From contig CBDATR010000024.1 in the NCBI GenBank assembly GCA_965200155.1, positions 448,673-512,672 on the forward strand: a stretch of 64,000 bases of DNA, given 5' to 3'. Source of the stretch: Nitrosopumilaceae archaeon. Lineage in GTDB: Archaea; Thermoproteota; Nitrososphaeria; Nitrososphaerales; Nitrosopumilaceae. Positions 4,722 to 64,000 of this stretch are shown here, piece by piece (the stretch's first letter is position 1; the number at the start of each line of letters is the position of its first letter). The translations under genes were made by a program, and so were the position numbers. The notes under the pieces are model-generated. The model saw nothing but the letters and a program-made list of their open reading frames with translations. It made no database searches and was not told the DNA's origin.

Positions 4722-5390
4722 AGTTGGGAGACATGGATGTCATTTATTAAATTGTGAGGTATGCGGCGAACGTAACAGTTTATGTCTCACAAGTTCGAAT
4801 ACAAGCTTGCCGGGATAGTGGAAGACTGACCATTTTCAAAATACGTTTGTTTATTGCGAACCTGTTCTCTGAGCACACATTTGCCACAGACTTGTGTAAC
4901 ACGTCATAAACACTGGCAGCCTGGATCAGAGTATGGCGAAGGTGACCCAAATGGTCACTACAGGAACCGCTCATGACGGTAGTAAATGCTTACTCTGTAA
5001 TCCGGGCCCTTGGCAGTGACCAAGGTCATTGTACAATTGCTCTGTTATTGAGATTGATGTGACGCGATGGAGCAGTATACGCTATGACTGACAGAAGCAT
5101 ATCCTCTGTGTAGTATGTTTAATGTACGCGTAAACCCACTACAAATCTTGGATACCAACTTATGGTATGAACTCGCCACCTCAAATGGGGATCTCTGGGT
5201 GACCTAAAAGGTTACAATAAAACTCAGTAGGAGATTTAAATTGAAAAGAAAGGCAGTAGTATGAGTTCACGTGTTTTGATCATTCACTAAGATATAGATT
5301 GGCATGACAATATTTTACTTAAATACCAAATTTGCAATAAGAATCTAATGAGAAGACGCCGGTCCTATAAGGAATTGGAACTGAAAAATA

Positions 5391-5480
5391 GTATGAGTTC
5401 ACCTGTGTCTAAATTTACGCACAACTGATCGCGACAGTTAATGTGATTTGTGCACGATTCCGGAAGACGTGAACTCATAC
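5391..5480. mobile_element. 92-bp-family MITE (90 bp)
   Basis: TIR gtatgagttcac; near TSD gaaaaata/aaaaaata. Confidence 0.88.
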
Positions 5481-5505
5481 AAAAAATAAGCTTCTTCAGG
5501 ATACC

Positions 5506-5607
5506 CTTGCGTCTACCAAGAAAGAACTTGCACATTACAAGGCAGGGGCCATGGGCCGCCTTGTCCTACGTCTTGCGGCTACCGAGAAAGATCTTGCACA
5601 TTACAAG
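5506..5607 (+). CRISPR. CRISPR-like mini-array inside IS66 transposase (2 repeats, one 30-bp spacer)
   Basis: 36-bp repeats 5506-5541 and 5572-5607 (second degenerate); spacer is a deleted version of the last spacer of the 52173-52425 array. Confidence 0.65.
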
Positions 5608-7029
5608 GAACGTGTGAGAGTATTGGAAGCATATGTGTCCCGCACCACAAAAGAAATACGAAATCTCACACAAGATTTCCAAATTATTATAAATTATGTA
5701 AATGAATTGGAAAAGAAATTAAAAGAAAAACAGGGGAAAATTGCGGTAATCACAACGCGACTTAAATATTATGAGAATGCTCACTTGCCACCATCCCTTC
5801 AATCCCTCCAGTACAAGAAGCGGGAACAGGGAGATAATAAGCAACAGACAGAAGCCAGTACTAAATCAGCCAAAAAGGCTGGCGCGCAAAAGGGACACAA
5901 GGGGGTTTCCCGTTCCCACAACCCCGACAGAGTAATGCGCCACACCTTTGAGCATACTCCAATATGTGAGTGCGGCAATATAATGACAAAAAGTGGTTGG
6001 AAACAACGACGCATAACAGAATTAATACCAGCCAGAATAGAGGAGACCCTTCATGTGATAGAGATGGCCTCCTGCATGTGCGGCAAAAAACAACTGGCCC
6101 CAGCAGTGGGCGTCCCAGAGAGTGGTGGTTTTGAGATGTGGTGCCATCACTGCATTGCGTGCGGAAAAGATTCCAATAAAACGCGTACCTGTAATTTCGA
6201 GGGATCTCTTCGGCCTGAATATATCGGTGGGTGCGGTAAACAACATAATTGCCAGGGCCGCCGATGCATGCGAATCATTTATGGAAACAATTTATGAGAA
6301 TATAATAAAATCACCCAGCATTCATGTGGACGAAACTGGTATATCACTGGCGGGTAAGCGTGGCTGGATATGGGGGATGCGGGCCGAAGAGTGGATGATA
6401 TGCAAAAGTAGGAGTCATATGTAGTGGACAAATACCTGAACGGTTACCAGGGCGCGATAGTCACAGACAGGTACGTTGTGTGTTACCGGTTTGATGACGG
6501 TGGGAAGCACCATCTGGGCGCATTTATTGCGCAATACCAGTATATTACATGCAGGATTCTATATCGATCCCGGTGATCAGGACGCCCGGATCAAACTTGA
6601 CAACTATTTGATCCGGAGCGCACGTGAATCGCTGCGGGCCGTCCGCGCAATTACGACACTCATTTGAGACAGGAGCAGATGCATCAGTACTGTGATGTTG
6701 AGGATACTGAACTGCAAAAGAAGGTAAAAGGATTGAATAAGGCCATACCAGGCATGTTCGTATTCCTAGAATATGACAGTGTGGAGCCGACCAACAATCC
6801 AGCGGAGCAGTGGAACCGGTTCTGATACGCAGTGGTATTCCGCAAGATTAGTGGTCAGATAAAGGGTGTAATGCGCCGCATGTCCATATGTGTTCAGACA
6901 TGGAGGACTCAGGGCCTTTCTGTAATGAATGAGGTTGCTGCCAGAATGCAATTATAATTAAAAAACTGGGATGCATTCTATCTTATTATGTGATCAAAAC
7001 ACGTGAACTCATACCTTTTACTAGTCCAC

Positions 7030-10267: not shown

Positions 10268-10501
10268 GATGGGTAAGTTGTTTAATAAAATAAATGTCGC
10301 CAACGAGGTTGTAGGTACTGACTCGGAGATACTAGGTGAGGAGCTCATGCCAAAACAATTCAACGATAATTACACCAAGATAAGAAAGATGGCGTATGAG
10401 TTCACGTGTTTTGATCACATAATAAGATAGAATACATCCCAGTTTTTTAATTATAACTGCATTCTGGCAGCAACCTCGTTCATTACAGAAAGGCCTTGAG
10501 C

Positions 10502-10600
10502 GTATGAGTTCACCTGTGTCTAAATTTACGCACAACTGATCGCGACAGTTAAAGAACCGGTTCTTTTGTGCACAAGATTCCGGAAGACGTGAACTCATAC
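10502..10600. mobile_element. MITE (99 bp, with palindromic scar)
   Basis: TIRs; TSD ccttgagc. Confidence 0.92.
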
Positions 10601-10707
10601 CCTTGAGCCCTCCATGTCTGAACGCATGATACGAATGTAGACATGCGGCGCATTGCCCTTTCGCCACCCTTTATCTGGCCACCAATCTTGCGGAATACCA
10701 CTGCGTA

Positions 10708-12162
10708 TCAGAACCGGTTCCACTGCTCCGCTGGATTGTTGGTGGGCTCTACACTGTCATATTCTAAGAATACGAACATGCCTGGTATGGCCTTATTCAA
10801 TCCTTTTACCTTCTTTTGTAGTTCAGTATCATCAACATCACAGTACTGATGCAGAATGGATTCTGCTCCTGTCTCAAATGAGTGTCGTAATTGCGCGGAC
10901 GGCCCGCAGTGATTCAGGGATTCCCGTGCGCTCCGGAACAATCCTTTCAGGTCGTTGTCAAGTTTGATCCGGGCGTCCTGAGCACCGGGATCGATATAGA
11001 ATCCTGCATGTAATGCCTGGGTATCGCGCAATAAATGCGCCCAACACAACTGGTGCTTCCCACCGTCATCAAACCGGCGGTACACAACGTACCTGTCCGT
11101 TACTATCGCTCCCTGGTAACCGTTCAGGTATTTGTTCACTACATTTGAACTCCTACTTTTGTCATATATGGACATCATCCACTCTTCGGCTCGCATCCCC
11201 CATACCCAGCCACGCCTACCCGCCAGTGATATACCAGTTTCGTCCACATGAATGCTGGGTGATTTTATTATATTTTCATGAATTGTTTCCATAAATGATT
11301 CACATGCATCGGCGGCCCTGGCAATTATGTTGTTTACTGCACCCACCGATATATTTAGGCCGAAGAGATCCTTCGAAATTACAGGTATGCGTTTTATTGG
11401 AATCTTTTCTGCGCGTAATGCAGTGATGGCACCGCATAATTGAACCCCAAAACTACCACTCTTTGGGACGCCAGCTGCTGGGGCCAGTTGTTTTTTGCCG
11501 CACATACATGCAGCCATTTCTATCATATGGTGGGCCTCCTCTATTTTGGCTGGTATTAATTCCGTTATGTGTCGTTGTTTCCAACCAATTTTTGTCATCA
11601 TATTGCCGCACTCACATATTGGTGTGTACTCAAAGGTGTGATGCACTACTCTGCCGGGGTTGTGGGAACGGGAAACCCCCTTGTGTCCCTTTTGAGCGCC
11701 AGCCTTTTTGGCTGATTTCGTACTGGCTTCTTTCTGTTGCTTATTATCTCCCTGTTTTCGCTTCTGCTCCTCCTGTTTTCGCTTCTTGTACTGGAGGGAT
11801 TGAAGGGATGGTGGCGAGTGAGCATTCTCATAATATTTAAGTCGCGTTGTGAGTACCACAATTTTCCCCTGTTTTTCTTTTAATTTCTCATTCAATTCAT
11901 TTACATAATTCCTAATAATTTGGAAATCTTGTGTGAGATTTCGTATTTCTTTTATGATGCGGGACACATATGCTTCCAATACTCTCACACGTTCCTTGTA
12001 ATGTGCAAGATCTTTCTTGGTAGACGCAAGCAAGCGACTCATTCGCAGTGTCGCCCCGCCCAAATACTTGTAATGTGCAAGATCTTTCTTGGTAGACGCA
12101 AGGGTATCCTGAAGAAGTTTATTTTCCAGTTCCAATTCCTTATAGGACCGGCGTCTTCTCAT
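10708..12162 (-). CDS. IS66 DDE transposase, C-terminally truncated by a scar
   Basis: Coiled coil, NAHSPPS, GAQKGH, CxC zinc, HVDETG, TDRY, QLCWAHLLR, EPTNNPAE. Confidence 0.9.
   Translation of the reverse strand: MRRRRSYKELELENKLLQDTLASTKKDLAHYKYLGGATLRMSRLLASTKKDLAHYKERVRVLEAYVSRIIKEIRNLTQDFQIIRNYVNELNEKLKEKQGKIVVLTTRLKYYENAHSPPSLQSLQYKKRKQEEQKRKQGDNKQQKEASTKSAKKAGAQKGHKGVSRSHNPGRVVHHTFEYTPICECGNMMTKIGWKQRHITELIPAKIEEAHHMIEMAACMCGKKQLAPAAGVPKSGSFGVQLCGAITALRAEKIPIKRIPVISKDLFGLNISVGAVNNIIARAADACESFMETIHENIIKSPSIHVDETGISLAGRRGWVWGMRAEEWMMSIYDKSRSSNVVNKYLNGYQGAIVTDRYVVYRRFDDGGKHQLCWAHLLRDTQALHAGFYIDPGAQDARIKLDNDLKGLFRSARESLNHCGPSAQLRHSFETGAESILHQYCDVDDTELQKKVKGLNKAIPGMFVFLEYDSVEPTNNPAEQWNRF
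11995..12102 (-). CRISPR. CRISPR-like mini-array inside IS66 transposase (2 identical repeats, one 36-bp spacer, in frame)
   Basis: Repeats 11995-12030 and 12067-12102; unique spacer 12031-12066. Confidence 0.7.
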
Positions 12163-12660
12163 TAGATTCTTATTGCAAATTTGGTATTTAAGTAAAATAT
12201 TGTCATACCAATCTATATCTTAGTGAATGATCAAAACACGTGAACTCATACAAGATGGCCACAAAAGATGGTGCCAAAACCATAATTGAATCACTAGAGC
12301 GGGAGTCGGATATGATGCCAAATACATCACCACTAAATGAGCTTAGAAAGTTCGTCAAGAAGCGTGGTATAGATAGTATGAGCGAATTCCCAATGGGGCG
12401 CAGAGCAGGCAAGCGCGGCAAGCGGGAGATTATACTATCCTATAAAGAAAAAGGGGGCATGTATATTTTGTGACCTATGACAGGAACAAGAAGAAGGCGA
12501 AAGTACCGGATGATGAATCTGAACTTGTCCGGCGATTACAATGTGTCCCTGACACAGAGTCTTATTTGTCGGAAGACGGACCGAAACACAGGGAATCATT
12601 CATGACTTTATTGGAGGTAGACAAGGCCGCTCGTAAGAAAATTATGGAACGAAATGAATT

Positions 12661-23191: not shown

Positions 23192-24665
23192 TCAATAGTA
23201 CGAAAAGTAAGTCCACTTAGGATCCGGCGTACAGTAGTTCAGATTGCACAAGCCACGAAAGGCTATGGTAAAGAGAATAACAGAGGAATCAAGACAAGAG
23301 GCGTTGCCGCCACCAAAATGTATGAGTTCACGTCTTCCGGAATCTTATGCACAAATCACATTAACTGTAGCGATCAGTTGTGCGTAAATTTAGACACAGG
23401 TGAACTCATACACCAAAATAGCTCAAGACCTGAAACAAGACACGTGCGAAGATTGTGAACCAGAGAACGGGAACGACTCGAGTAAAGATGGGCAGGCCTA
23501 TGATACCAATCACCGCCACCCAGATACGAATGGTAACTGAAGCATATCACAAGGATCCCGCCGGAGTAAGTACGTATTGCAAAGAGGCTTAGACAGAATT
23601 ACAATATATCATATCGCGCAGTATATCGCAATAATGAAAAAGAACGGTACGGCAGGATCATCACCTGCAAAGTCAGAGTGGGTACGCTATGAGCGTAAAT
23701 ATTCCAATGCAATATGGCAGTATGAGTTCACGTCTTCCGGAATCTTATGCACAAATCACATTAACTGTAGCGATCAGTTGTGCGTAAATTTAGACACAGG
23801 TGAACTCACACATGTCGCACGTAGACTGGCATGTCATGAAAGATGAGCGCTTCAAGGGACTGAATCTCATAGATGATGCAACCGGGTGTATAGTCGGGGC
23901 GGCACTTTGAGCATGCAACCTCAGAGAACGCCGCTCTATTACTGAGACTGGCAATGAAACGATTCGGCGCCCCTGCATCCATACTATCTGATAACGGCGC
24001 GTGTTTCGTAGGACAATAAAGGGGCAAGAAAAGCTGGAAACCCACACTATTCTAGGAAGAACTGCTGGATCAAGACATCAGTATGAGTTCACCTGTGTCT
24101 AAATTTACGCATAACTGATCGCAACAGTTAATGTGATTTGTGCACAAGATTCCGGAAGACGTGAACTCATACAGACATCATACTAATCAATTCCAGACCA
24201 TACCACCCGCAGACAAATGGCAAACTGGAGCGCTTCCATAGAACGATTGAGGACGAGATATGGCATTCAATCTCCCACTGGGACCATGACCCCCGTCCTG
24301 CAGGCTTCACAGAACGATTGAGGACGAGATATGGCATTCAATCTCCCACTGGGACCATGACCCCCGTCCTGCAGGCTTCCACAGAACGATTGAGGACGAG
24401 ATATGGCATTCAATCTCCCACTGGGACCATGACCCCCGTCCTGCAGGCTTCCACAGAACGATTGAGGACGAGATATGGCATTATGACAGTCTCCGGGATT
24501 ATGTGGACTACCACAATGAGAGAAGATTGCACTTCTCACCGGATATAGATAACGGCGAAACGCCGCTTCAGGAATAAAAAGGCGACCCAGACAACTAGGG
24601 CAAATGATGCAAAATGGATGGAGCGGGATACCAATGACTAGCGGACCGACTTTTCATACATTACA
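23192..24665 (+). mobile_element. IS481-family element, degenerate, with three MITEs (23320-23411, 23720-23811, 24081-24172)
   Basis: Imperfect TIRs tcaatagtacgaaaagt / tgtaatgtatgaaaagt; 15-bp TSD ggtaaccgttgcgcg; remnants RYER...WHVDW, DDA, ILSDNG, QTNGKLERFH; MITE TSDs accaaaat and agacatca. Confidence 0.85.
24232..24482 (+). repeat. 36-bp duplicated IS481 sequence x4 separated by a foreign 36-bp insert x3 (CRISPR-like unit)
   Basis: Repeat gcttccacagaacgattgaggacgagatatggcatt; insert caatctcccactgggaccatgacccccgtcctgcag is absent from the IS481 copies near 61057 and 62600. Confidence 0.9.
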
Positions 24666-50756: not shown

Positions 50757-52576
50757 GTACGAGTTCACGTGTTTTGATCACATAATAAGATAGAATGCAT
50801 CCCAGTTTTTTAATTATAATTGCATTCTGGCAGCAACCTCGTTCATTACAGAAAGGCCCTGAGCCCGCCATGTCTGAACACATATGGACATGCGGCGCAT
50901 GACCCTTTCACCACCCTTTATCTGGCCACTAATTTGTATGAGTTCACGTCTTCCAGAATCTTATGTACAAATCACATTAACTGTCGCGATCAGTTATGCG
51001 TAAATTTAGACACAGGTGAACTCATACACTAATTTTGCGGAATACCACTGCATATCAGAACCGGTTCCACTGCTCCGCTGGATTGTTGGTGTGCTCCACA
51101 CTGTCATATTCTAGGAATACGAACATGCCCGGTATGGCCTTATTCAACCCTTTTACCTTCTTTTGCAGTTCAGTATCATCAACATCACAATACTGATGCA
51201 TCTGCTCCTGCCTCAAATGAGTGTCGTAATTGCGCGGACGGCCCGCAGCGATTCACGTGCGCTCCGGATCAAATCGTTGTCAAGTTTGATCCGGGCGTCC
51301 TGATCACCGGGATCGATATAGAATCCTGCATATAATATACTGGTATCGCGCAATAAATGCGCCCAGATGGTGCTTCCCACCGTCATCAAACCGGTAACAC
51401 ATAACGTACCTGTCTGTGACTATCGCGCCCTGGTGACCGTTCAGGTATTTGTCCACTACATATGAACTCCTACTTTTGTATATCCTCCACTCTTCGGCCC
51501 GCATCCCCCATATCCAGCCACGCTTACCCGCCAGTGATATACCAGTTTCGTCCACATGAATGCTGGGTGATTTTTTCATAAATTGTTTCCATAAATGATT
51601 CGCATGCATCGGCGGCCCTGGCAATTATGTTGTTTGCCGCACCCACCGATATATTCAGGCCGAAGAGATCCCTCGAAATTACAGGTATGCGTTTTATTGG
51701 AATCTTTTCCGCACGTAATGCAGTGATAGCACCACATCTCAAACCACCACTCTCTGGGACGCCCGCTGCTGGGGCTAGTTGTTTTTTGCCGCACATGCAG
51801 GAGGCCATCTCTATAACATGAAGGGTCTCCTCTATTCTGGCTGGTATTAATTCTGTTATGCGTCGTTGTTTCCAACCACTTTTTGTCATTATATTGCTGC
51901 ACTCACATTGTGGAGTATGCTTAAAGGTATGACGCATTATTCTGTCGGGGTTGTGGGAACGGGAAACCCCCTTGTGTCCCTTTTGCGCGCCAGCCTTTTT
52001 GGCTGATTTAGTACTGGCTTCTGTCTGTTGCTTATTATCTCCCTGTTTTCGCGTATGAGTTCACCTGTGTCTAAATTTACGCACAACTGATCGCGACAGT
52101 TAATGTGATTTGTGCACAAGATTCCGGAAGACGTGAACTCATACCCTATGCTTCCAATACGCTCACACGTTCCTTGCAATGTGCAAGATCTTTCTCGGTA
52201 GCCACAAGACGTAGGACAAGGCACATGTTGCCCATGGCCCCTGCCTTGCAATGTGCAAGTTCTTTCTTGGTAGACGCAAGATTCCGTGCGGCGATATGGA
52301 TCTGAAGCAACAACGACCTTGCAATGTGCAAGTTCTTTCTTGGTAGACGCAAGGAGAGGCTCGCATATAATGAATCGCGTGCCCGTGACCTTGCAATGTG
52401 CAAGTTCTTTCTTGGTAGACGCAAGGGTATCCTGAAGAATCTGAATTTCCCGTTCCAATTCCTTATAGGACCGGCGTCTTCTCATTAGATTCTTATTGCA
52501 AATTTGGTATTTAAGCAAAATATTGTCATACCAATCTATACATCTTAGTGAATGATCAAAACACGTGAACTCATAC
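50757..52576 (-). mobile_element. IS66 element, degenerate, with MITEs at 50936-51027 (TSD actaattt) and 52053-52144
   Basis: Both TIRs; frameshifted transposase; deletion next to the 52053 MITE. Confidence 0.9.
52173..52425 (-). CRISPR. CRISPR-like array inside IS66 transposase: four 36-bp repeats, three unique spacers (36, 37, 36 bp)
   Basis: Repeat CTTGCGTCTACCAAGAAAGAACTTGCACATTGCAAG at 52390-52425, 52318-52353, 52245-52280 (identical) and degenerate terminal copy 52173-52208. Confidence 0.8.
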
Positions 52577-62414: not shown

Positions 62415-63485
62415 TGTAATGTATGAAAAGTCGGTCCGCTAGTCATTGGCATCCCGCTCCATCCATTTTGCATCATTTACCCTAATTGTCTGGATCGCCT
62501 TTTTATTCCTGAAGCTGCGTTTCGCCGTTATCTATATCCAGTGAGAAGTGCAATCTTCTCTCATTGTAGTAGTCAACATAATCCCGGAGACTGTCATAAT
62601 GCCATATCTCGTCCTCAATTGTTCTATGGAAGCGTCCAGTTTGCCATTTGTCTGCGGGTGGTATGGTCTGGAATTGATTAGTATGATGTCTTGATCCAGT
62701 AGTTCTTCCTCGGTATGAGTTCACCTGTGTCTAAATTTACGCATAACTGATCGCGACAGTTAGTGTGATTTGTGCACAAGATTCCGGAAGACGTGAACTC
62801 ATACCTTCCTCGAATAGTACGGGTTTCCAGTTCTTTTTGCCCTTTTATTGTCCTACGAAACACGCGCCGTTATCAGATAGTATGGATGCAGGGGCGCCGA
62901 ATCTCTTTATCGCCAGTCTCAGTAATAGAACGGCGTTCTCTGAGGTTACATGCTCAAATAGTGCCACCCCGACTATACACCCGGATGCACCATCTATGAG
63001 ATTCAGTCCCTTGAAGCGCTCATCTTTCATGACATGTCAGTCTACGTGCCACATTGCATTGGAATATTTACGCTCATAGCGTACCCACTCTGACTTTGCA
63101 GGTGATGATCCTGCCGTACCGTTCTTTTTCATTATGCAATATACTGCGCGATATGATATATTGTAATTCTGTCTAAGCCTCTTTGCAATACGTACTACTC
63201 CGGCGGGATCCTTGTGATATGCTTCCGTTACCATTCGTATCTGGGCAGCGGTGATTGGTATCATGGGCCTGCCCATCTTTACTCGAGTCGTTCCCGTCCT
63301 CTGGTTCACAATCTTCGTACGTGTCTTGTTTCAGGTCTTGAGCTATTTTGGTGGAGGTAACGTCTCTTTTGCGCTGTCTTACTATTGATTTCTCTGTTAT
63401 TCTCTTTACCATGGCCTTTCGTGGCTTGCGCAATCTGAACTACTGTACGCCGGATCCTAAGCGGACTTACTTTTCATACTATTGA
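62415..63485 (-). mobile_element. IS481 element, degenerate, with MITE 62713-62804 (TSD cttcctcg); duplicated left end to 63620
   Basis: Both ends; frameshifted integrase-type transposase. Confidence 0.87.
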
Positions 63486-64000
63486 CTATTTTGCTTGTGG
63501 CAACGCCTCTTTTGCGCTGTCTTACTATTGATTTCTCTGTTATTCTCTTTACCATCTGGCTTGTGCAATCTGAACTACTGTACGCCGGATCCTAAGCGGA
63601 CTTACTTTTCATACTATTGAATTGTTGGGTGCGATTCATTATACTAGTATATAAGATCGAAGTTTTTAACTTTTATCTTGCTTCAAAGTACCATATTTAG
63701 CTGCACACAATACCATATTGACATGCCAAATTAACCACCCCCTTGGGGGCGCGCAAATAAGCCTGTGATAATTGTGATATTTTGATCAAATTAGTCGCCC
63801 AAAGACTTATGGTGGCCGCTATATGTGAGACGCCATGATAAAAAGCAAGATCGGACATGTTAGCGGTGTGTTTGAACAGTTGCCCGGGGGTGACCTAAAC
63901 GGCTACCTCATGACATGCGTGAACATTTTTAGATAGTATGAAAAATGTAATCTGCAATGGAAAATCTAAGTGTAGCACAATGGCAATCGGAGGTAATTGA

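Follow-up and report, generated by a model that had tools for sequence, protein, structure and literature searches.

Spacer arrays inside an IS66-family transposase gene of a Nitrosopumilaceae archaeon: probable off-target integration by a resident type I-G CRISPR system

How does an array of repeated units and unrelated spacers come to lie inside the transposase gene of an insertion sequence (IS), and does it behave as a CRISPR array? The question is raised by positions 5506-5607 of a 64,000-nucleotide stretch of a Nitrosopumilaceae genome (hereafter the window), where two copies of a unit enclose a short spacer, just as an earlier reading made from the letters alone (the sequence-only reading) had described. 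On the forward strand, unit 1 (5506-5541; 36 nt, CTTGCG..CAAG) is transposase coding sequence (LASTKKELAHYK) and the 5′ copy of a duplicated target, spacer S1(30) follows at 5542-5571 (30 nt; GCAGGGGCCATGGGC followed by CGCCTTGTCCTACGT), and unit 2, the trailer unit (5572-5607), has 3 mismatches to unit 1 and carries the variant GGCTACCGAGAAAGAT. A larger array of four units and three spacers (S4, S3 and S1(36)) lies on the reverse strand at 52173-52425. Three of its units (52390-52425, 52318-52353 and 52245-52280) are identical to one another, and its trailer unit (52173-52208) differs from them at 4 positions and shares the GGCTACCGAGAAAGAT variant with 5572-5607. Its last spacer, S1(36) (52209-52244; 36 nt), is the sequence of 5542-5571 with 6 nt extra (AACATG), as claimed, and the two additional spacers reported on the side of the IS left end were found there as S4 (52354-52389; 36 nt) and S3 (52281-52317; 37 nt, frame shifted). 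The sequence-only reading had missed a third array-bearing copy of the IS in the window, which holds a single-spacer array on the reverse strand at 11995-12102 (units 12067-12102 and 11995-12030); its spacer, S5 (12031-12066; 36 nt), is in frame and without a stop. The duplicated unit is 36 nt long and not 37, as the copies with S5 and with a further spacer, S6, exclude the final G from it, and the spacers are therefore 30, 36 or 37 nt. With up to 3 mismatches allowed, the 37-nt pattern itself matched 7 times in the window and not once in 100 shuffles.

All three window arrays sit 149 nt inside copies of one IS, within its open reading frame (ORF). The element is about 1.65 kb long without nested MITEs, and its terminal inverted repeats begin GTATGAGTTCAC. 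Copy A (5259-7014, forward strand; decayed, with a nested MITE at 5391-5480) has these repeats at 5259 and 7014, retains an open frame of 274 codons through the unit and is 88% identical to the reference copy over 1,307 nt. Copy B (10394-12251, reverse strand) has a nested MITE at 10502-10600 and an 8-bp target duplication, and copy C (50757-52576, reverse strand; decayed) has nested MITEs at 50936-51027 and 52053-52144. The flanks of copies A and C showed no matching target duplication. Elsewhere in the genome, an intact copy (C43:71556) has a single 541-aa ORF that matched DDE_Tnp_IS66 (PF03050; 6.4e-39) and the NCBIfam model transpos_IS66 (NF033517; 224.8 bits, cut-off 180). This transposase domain, the GTATGAGTTCAC inverted repeat at both ends and 8-bp duplications in three copies all place the element in the IS66 family. 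Classical IS66 elements carry three ORFs; this IS carries one, and the accessory ORFs are absent. The roughly 90-nt MITE with IS66 terminal repeats is very abundant and is nested within the IS copies themselves, and GTATGAGTTCAC has 48 matches in the window, those of the four MITEs above among them. The window also holds a 143-nt tandem repeat at 63338-63620 (2 copies, 89% matches).

The unit, which encodes LASTKKELAHYK in the N-terminal coiled-coil part of the transposase ORF, was counted at 66 IS loci genome-wide. It stands alone at 49 of these, and the other 17 have one to three inserts of 30-37 nt (13 multi-unit arrays, 2 loci added by the 36-nt pattern and 2 truncated loci recovered via their spacers). 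A single unit is also the state of a distant subfamily (74-81% identity, 7 loci) and of an 11-locus subfamily (for example C10:296887 and C24:95418) with a 21-nt tandem duplication (KKDIEDY, one heptad) at the same coiled-coil position, which is ordinary slippage, unlike a spacer. The distribution over these subfamilies marks the single unit as the ancestral state. Beyond this genome, none of the 20 relatives searched had the IS unit, and a protein search for outgroup transposases returned 2 proteins only, both from this genome.

A type I-G CRISPR locus that looks complete from its predicted genes lies on contig C9, a different contig from that of the window. A Cas4g/Cas1g fusion (intact ORF of 549 aa; NF049935, 710.7 bits) and Cas2 (91 aa, open) adjoin the main array, C9:71011-92087, which has 289 repeats of 36 nt each; a Cas3-extension protein, Cas3g, Csb2 and Csb1 are encoded downstream of the array on the opposite strand. 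A search for Csx17/Cas8g gave no match in this genome, and control genomes gave no match either. At C9:98716-100753, where the type I-G large-subunit gene would be expected, lie fragments of an IS5-family transposase. Spacers of the main array are 37 (101 spacers), 36 (85), 38 (63), 35 (16) or 39 nt (15) long. The IS arrays follow this spacing (unit 36 nt, spacers 36-37 nt; main-array repeat 36 nt, spacer modes 36-38 nt) and show neither the consensus repeat, nor a leader, nor adjacency to cas genes. Their unit shares 15 of 36 positions with the true repeat (ATTTCCGCAGCCTAACGGTTGCGGCCTCATTGAAGG) and lacks its internal palindrome, and the only sequence that they have in common with the main leader is a 9-mer (GAATTGGAA) at a different distance, possibly by chance. 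The suggestion that the element carries a leader-driven CRISPR array as cargo thus had to be given up: the unit is part of the transposase coding sequence, it does not resemble the true repeat and most copies of the element have it only once.

The spacers themselves hold information on where the inserts came from. S1 to S6 (36, 36, 37, 36, 36 and 37 nt, plus the 30-nt deleted form of S1) are mutually unrelated, and none aligns with the unit. S2 corresponds to C24:21285-21319 in the family-B DNA polymerase gene (polB; 35-36 of 36 nt). S1(36) matches C1:23454-23489 at 31 of 36 nt, the sole S1 match outside the arrays at E<0.01; it falls within the ribulose-phosphate 3-epimerase gene (rpe), in an ORF that carries PF00834, and the cell's own rpe gene is the likely donor of S1. 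Since the donor has the 6 nt that are missing from S1(30), the shorter form is the deletion derivative. Both S1 and S2 lie in sense orientation and in the native reading frame of their donor genes, while the frame-breaking spacers S3 and S6, of which S6 brings a stop, are confined to one IS copy each. No donor for S3-S6 was found in the genome, and blastn queries with 52173-52425 and 11995-12102 gave no match for S3-S5 among 50,697 phage records.

We consider it very probable that the IS array formed by off-target spacer integration by the host type I-G Cas4/Cas1 and Cas2, at a hot spot in the transposase gene. The reading builds on direct observations (array geometry, donor genes, single-unit copies, cas genes with a main array, target duplications and presence in sequencing runs): the duplication has the length of the resident repeat, the insert falls in the resident spacer range, an insert-free allele exists, S1 and S2 have donors, and the adaptation module is predicted to be intact. 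The integrase would take a 36-nt stretch of the IS66 transposase gene for a CRISPR repeat, make staggered cuts 36 nt apart and insert a spacer-sized fragment of the cell's own DNA, after which repair would duplicate the 36-nt target. Spacers S1-S6 would record at least six such integrations, all at one register but in different IS copies. S1, the oldest of them, would have left the reading frame open, and the IS copies that carried it would have spread by transposition while recombination exchanged segments among them. Further hits on the 5′ unit would have followed in some lineages (S2; S3 and then S4), giving growth nearest the IS left end, and the 30-nt spacer of 5542-5571 would be S1 after a 6-nt in-frame deletion. 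The old age of S1 has to be assumed, because the units on either side of it differ at 3-5 positions. The lack of a clear PAM beside the self protospacers, the mere 15 of 36 positions common to unit and true repeat, the missing palindrome and the missing leader also count against this reading. Both the identity of the enzyme, putatively Cas4/1-Cas2, and the order of the integration events are what we infer from these patterns, and the IS arrays presumably confer no immunity.

The same geometry was found across the genome. When exact direct repeats with periods of 41-140 were counted with the main array excluded, periods 71-75 held 69 runs, against mostly 1-7 at each other period (the exceptions being 82, 120 and 123, with 11-18 runs each), and run lengths peaked at 36 (17 runs) and 37 (20 runs). 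A catalogue of ectopic insertions, defined by at least 33 of 36 unit matches and by not being tandem, had 80 rows; once low-complexity contigs and copies were removed, 51 distinct targets with 64 distinct spacers were left. Duplications of 36 nt that enclose inserts of 35-39 nt occur at about 60 further places across the genome. The duplication is fixed at 36-37 nt and the insert varies over 35-42 nt, without compensation between the two; at C34:37404, for example, a 36-nt unit encloses a 42-nt insert.

At least 25 of the 64 ectopic spacers match unique places on the cell's own chromosome at 94-100%, compared with 2 of 288 spacers of the main array that match the genome. The first of these two matches is to an ectopic spacer, C25:4797-4832, which shares 27-28 nt with main spacer 58 (C9:75220-75246), and suggests that overlapping fragments of one donor were captured at a canonical and at an ectopic site; the second is 17 nt long and probably due to chance. 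The asymmetry in self-derived spacers would fit lethality in the expressed array and harmlessness elsewhere. Within the 9 kb upstream of the main array, near the cas4/1-cas2 genes, there are five ectopic sites. One of them, C9:70400-70610, consists of three 36-nt units and two self-derived spacers that sit precisely where cas4/1 stops and cas2 starts, a case in which the integrase would have struck its own operon; the same stop and start are 2-4 nt apart, with no insert, in two same-genus relatives. An empty-site comparison by DNA was bounded by same-genus genomes that are only ~72% identical and by a tested site that lies in a non-conserved stretch.

The window contains a second type of ectopic array at 24232-24482 (forward strand), in another multi-copy element, with four R units alternating with three S segments (R-S-R-S-R-S-R; period 72, 3.5 copies by TRF) and one spacer that occurs three times. 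Positions 1-36 of the consensus match many single copies elsewhere in the genome, and positions 37-72 match one place only, C9:50235-50270, at 36 of 36 nt. The pattern suggests an ectopic integration whose unit-spacer module was then amplified in tandem.

Some of the insertions fall in genes. Long open frames are interrupted by 73-74-nt ectopic insertions at C10:229607, C10:268681, C10:288031 and C10:311422; in one example the frame has 495 codons after in-silico excision versus 57 with the insert. From these frames, misplaced spacers appear to have broken genes at all four sites. Ectopic periods divisible by 3 are over-represented (34/64 versus 102/288 in the main array; p=0.003), and a crude split of the sites into coding (9/17) and non-coding (25/47) did not sharpen this bias.

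The ectopic targets gave a weak description of what the integrase would recognise. They match the true repeat at a mean of 12.8 of 36 positions, versus 11.6 for random sites (p=2.6e-5), an excess that is real but small. A weight matrix was built from the 50 non-IS targets, with orientation set by expectation-maximisation and leave-one-out scoring; it separated held-out sites from 20,000 random sites (p=4.6e-10), with a motif that is weak and has its information at T3, C11(-C12) and C26-C27. The IS unit, itself held out, scored at the 99.7th percentile in transposase orientation versus the 58th when reversed. The true repeat scored at the 99.3rd percentile in leader-to-spacer orientation; as the repeat had served to set the starting orientation, this value is in part circular. 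The orientation of the motif therefore puts the leader-equivalent side of the IS unit on the IS-left-end side. Six independent spacers at one register would be beyond chance for ~64 events in 2.38 Mb.

The best surviving alternative, which we nevertheless regard as improbable, is an undescribed CRISPR-independent process that adds ~72 nt by joining a copy of self DNA to a target duplication. Self-derived spacers without a PAM and a weak target preference would suit such a process, and neither raw nor motif-based orientation gave a PAM consensus beside the self protospacers (29 oriented flanks, with A only weakly over-represented at +1 to +3), although a PAM might be expected there after Cas4-guided acquisition. 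It would have to account for a duplication fixed at 36-37 nt beside an uncompensated insert of 35-42 nt (C34:37404), and for unit and insert lengths that equal those of the resident array. The clustering of five ectopic sites within 9 kb of cas4/1-cas2, the 27-28-nt overlap of one ectopic spacer with main spacer 58 and the (partly circular) percentile of the true repeat under the ectopic-site motif also argue against it.

We give still less weight to a genuine functional mini-CRISPR array that travels as IS cargo and supplies guide RNAs to the element or its host. Its regular unit-spacer geometry, polar growth and location in a transcribed gene would be in keeping with this, and mobile elements with mini-arrays are known (CRISPR-associated transposons, in the parts of PMC11300857 available to us). 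Against it stand the coding nature of the unit with its 15/36 likeness to the true repeat, the 49 of 66 loci with a single unit and the lack of cas genes in an IS with a single ORF. The PAM of type I-G systems is TTN. The S2 protospacer in the cell's essential polB gene is preceded by TTG, and with a match of 35-36 of 36 nt, an S2 guide would probably be self-destructive.

Expansion of a coding tandem repeat, by slippage or unequal crossing-over in a coiled coil, is less probable again. It draws on the position of the array in the N-terminal coiled-coil region, on periods that are mostly multiples of 3 (72 or 66) and on the 21-nt (7-aa) duplication at the same place in the 11-locus subfamily, but it does not explain six spacers that resemble neither one another nor the unit, two of which were copied from other genes, nor the 37-nt spacers S3 and S6 that break the frame (S6 with its stop), nor the recurrence of the 36+36-37 geometry at ~50 unrelated targets.

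Independent sequencing runs bear on whether these structures exist in the organism. A 10-kb stretch with five ectopic sites was sampled as words, and seven runs from two studies (a sponge metagenome; organism A) contained 0.89-0.93 of them; the assembly itself may derive from one of the two studies. Contigs built from the runs span the ectopic site C9:65225-65331, which 31-mer contigs pass through because its two units differ by one base; elsewhere contigs end at exact 36-nt units, as expected for 31-mers. Runs X1, X5 and X6 agree with the assembly at this site. Run X3 has 25 substitutions and 3 inserted letters, all in the spacer, which is replaced by one of about 38 nt between unchanged units, and the spacer content of this site therefore varies among samples. 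Duplication of 36 nt as an artefact of assembly or sequencing is almost certainly not the explanation, even though that length was once a short-read length and most duplications are exact, given structures in contigs from two studies, a run with a different spacer between the same units, unit pairs that differ at 1-3 positions and arrays that recur, with SNPs, in IS copies at different loci.

The proposal that spacers are added directionally was supported. Each of the 13 loci with a whole S1 has it in the 3′-most place, S2 lies 5′ of S1 in 6/6 loci with both, and S4-S3 lie 5′ of S1 in copy C. Identity to the donors is 97-100% for S2 and 86% for S1, and the units next to the 5′ spacers are the same (copy C) or 1 nt apart, against 3-5 nt of difference for the trailer unit. 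Polarity is thus supported by three extension events together with spacer ages, unit divergence and motif orientation. By counts alone it is statistically not strong, because there are only three extension events; the chance of all three falling at the first unit, if any unit were usable, is about 1 in 12. The apparent polarity would also be open to another cause, a trailer unit that makes a poorer target.

That the spacers were inherited by way of the mobile element, as had been proposed, is likewise borne out: S1 arrays lie at different loci, each with its own perfect 8-bp target duplication (GATTGATC at C10:6462, with S2-S1; CCTAATTT at C43:71556, with S1), and the S5 array of window copy B has a perfect 8-bp duplication of its own (GCCATCTT). 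Flanks are common to C13:25762, C24:97241 and C31:2830, and also to C24:55151 and C9:134740; C31:58798 and C43:71556 share a flank on the left side only. Shared flanks among IS copies indicate duplication of a larger unit or nesting, not separate jumps.

The history of gain and loss is less orderly. Presence or absence of S2 and of the 6-nt deletion failed the four-gamete test: S2 occurs with both S1(36) and S1(30), and each form of S1 also occurs without S2. These combinations require at least one loss, recurrent deletion or recombination. At C31:2830, S2 is duplicated in tandem. By sliding identities the IS backbones are mosaic, with C43:71556 and C31:58798 carrying S1 in a ‘young’ backbone. 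Judged from such combinations, spacer loss or recombination between copies also shaped the array pattern. A tree of IS copies, onto which the sequence-only reading would have mapped spacer gains, was built as a quick IQ-TREE run from 46 of the 66 loci (those with at least 500 aligned positions; the 20 too-short loci were dropped). It united 5 of the 9 array-bearing rows, with 3 single-unit rows, in one clade (SH-aLRT 96) and required 6 state changes. Its rows are contaminated by flanks of nested copies, and with these and the mosaic backbones it cannot order gains and losses cleanly.

The 541-aa frame of C43:71556 includes S1, and a 22-aa insert is therefore compatible with an intact gene. Together with the native frame of S1 and S2, the two spacers that spread, and the confinement of S3 and S6 to one copy each, this suggests, short of proof, that multiplication was limited to copies whose transposase frame stayed open. 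A bolder form of our reading is possible, and we put it forward tentatively, as more doubtful than the opposite: the transposase gene may hold a natural type I-G integrase hot spot, the IS may seed, carry and leaderlessly grow proto-CRISPR arrays, and S1, an old spacer taken from a housekeeping gene in its native frame, may serve as a 22-aa insert in an intact and probably active transposase. Leaderless growth at one end would then make polarity intrinsic to the asymmetric target motif.

Work of Nivala, Shipman and Church from 2018 (Nat Microbiol 3:310) reportedly described off-target Cas1-Cas2 integration that creates ‘neo-CRISPR’ loci. It is cited in bioRxiv 10.1101/148544 and PMC6698737, of which the accessible text of the former describes the evidence in two other species as circumstantial only. 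As these citing passages portray it, the likeness to our arrays is close: a non-CRISPR target is duplicated over the length of a repeat on either side of an insert the size of a spacer, new arrays can be seeded, and the cell's own DNA may supply the spacers. The same passages concern over-expressed type I-E in E. coli, whereas here the system is a natural type I-G in an archaeal sponge symbiont, with a transposase hot spot struck at least six times, multiplication by an IS, up to three spacers and leaderless growth at one end. Ectopic spacer acquisition within arrays is described, in the portions available, for Streptococcus thermophilus CRISPR1/CRISPR3 (PMC7999890) and S. mutans (PMC7316486, PMC8265633). 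There too insertion takes place away from the leader-proximal repeat, but into true repeats within arrays, while the targets here are non-CRISPR DNA on other contigs. In excerpts on target choice, Haloarcula hispanica has mid-repeat motifs that underlie a ruler-and-anchor model (PMC4872114), and Pyrococcus furiosus Cas1-Cas2 has off-target sites in vitro (PMC6698737). The fixed duplication length and the few informative positions of our targets (T3, C11-C12, C26-C27) resemble the model as excerpted there, whereas our motif is weak and comes from natural type I-G ectopic sites, not mutagenesis. The arrays of CRISPR-associated transposons, as far as PMC11300857 was available, are minimal, functional and unable to gain spacers; as in our element, a unit-spacer array moves with a transposon, but by that partial account the IS66 arrays differ in being accidental, in lying inside the transposase ORF and in gaining spacers. 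Overall, the case is a natural, if unusual, form of something known from the laboratory, off-target Cas1-Cas2 integration. Among open-access full texts and preprints, we found no paper that describes a transposase hot spot, spread by an IS or leaderless arrays growing at one end, and these features (a hot spot in a transposase gene, leaderless one-end growth of multi-spacer arrays, IS spread and a spacer serving as transposase coding sequence) appear to be new.

Off-target spacer integration is the leading idea for the origin of new CRISPR arrays, and the evidence for it is, according to the literature searched and the passages that cite it, mainly from over-expression in E. coli. The IS66 arrays offer a natural case with internal controls, in the form of 49 single-unit copies, six hits at one register, a readable order and donors, and the ~50 further targets across the genome yield a target motif for a type I-G integrase. 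They also expose costs and by-products of adaptive immunity, in that inserts taken from the cell itself disrupt or extend genes, and the scars of integration are carried around by a transposon, one of them now being part of an open transposase frame. If the bolder reading put forward above is true, mobile elements would be both cradle and vehicle for new CRISPR arrays, and spacer integration would be a source of new protein sequence.
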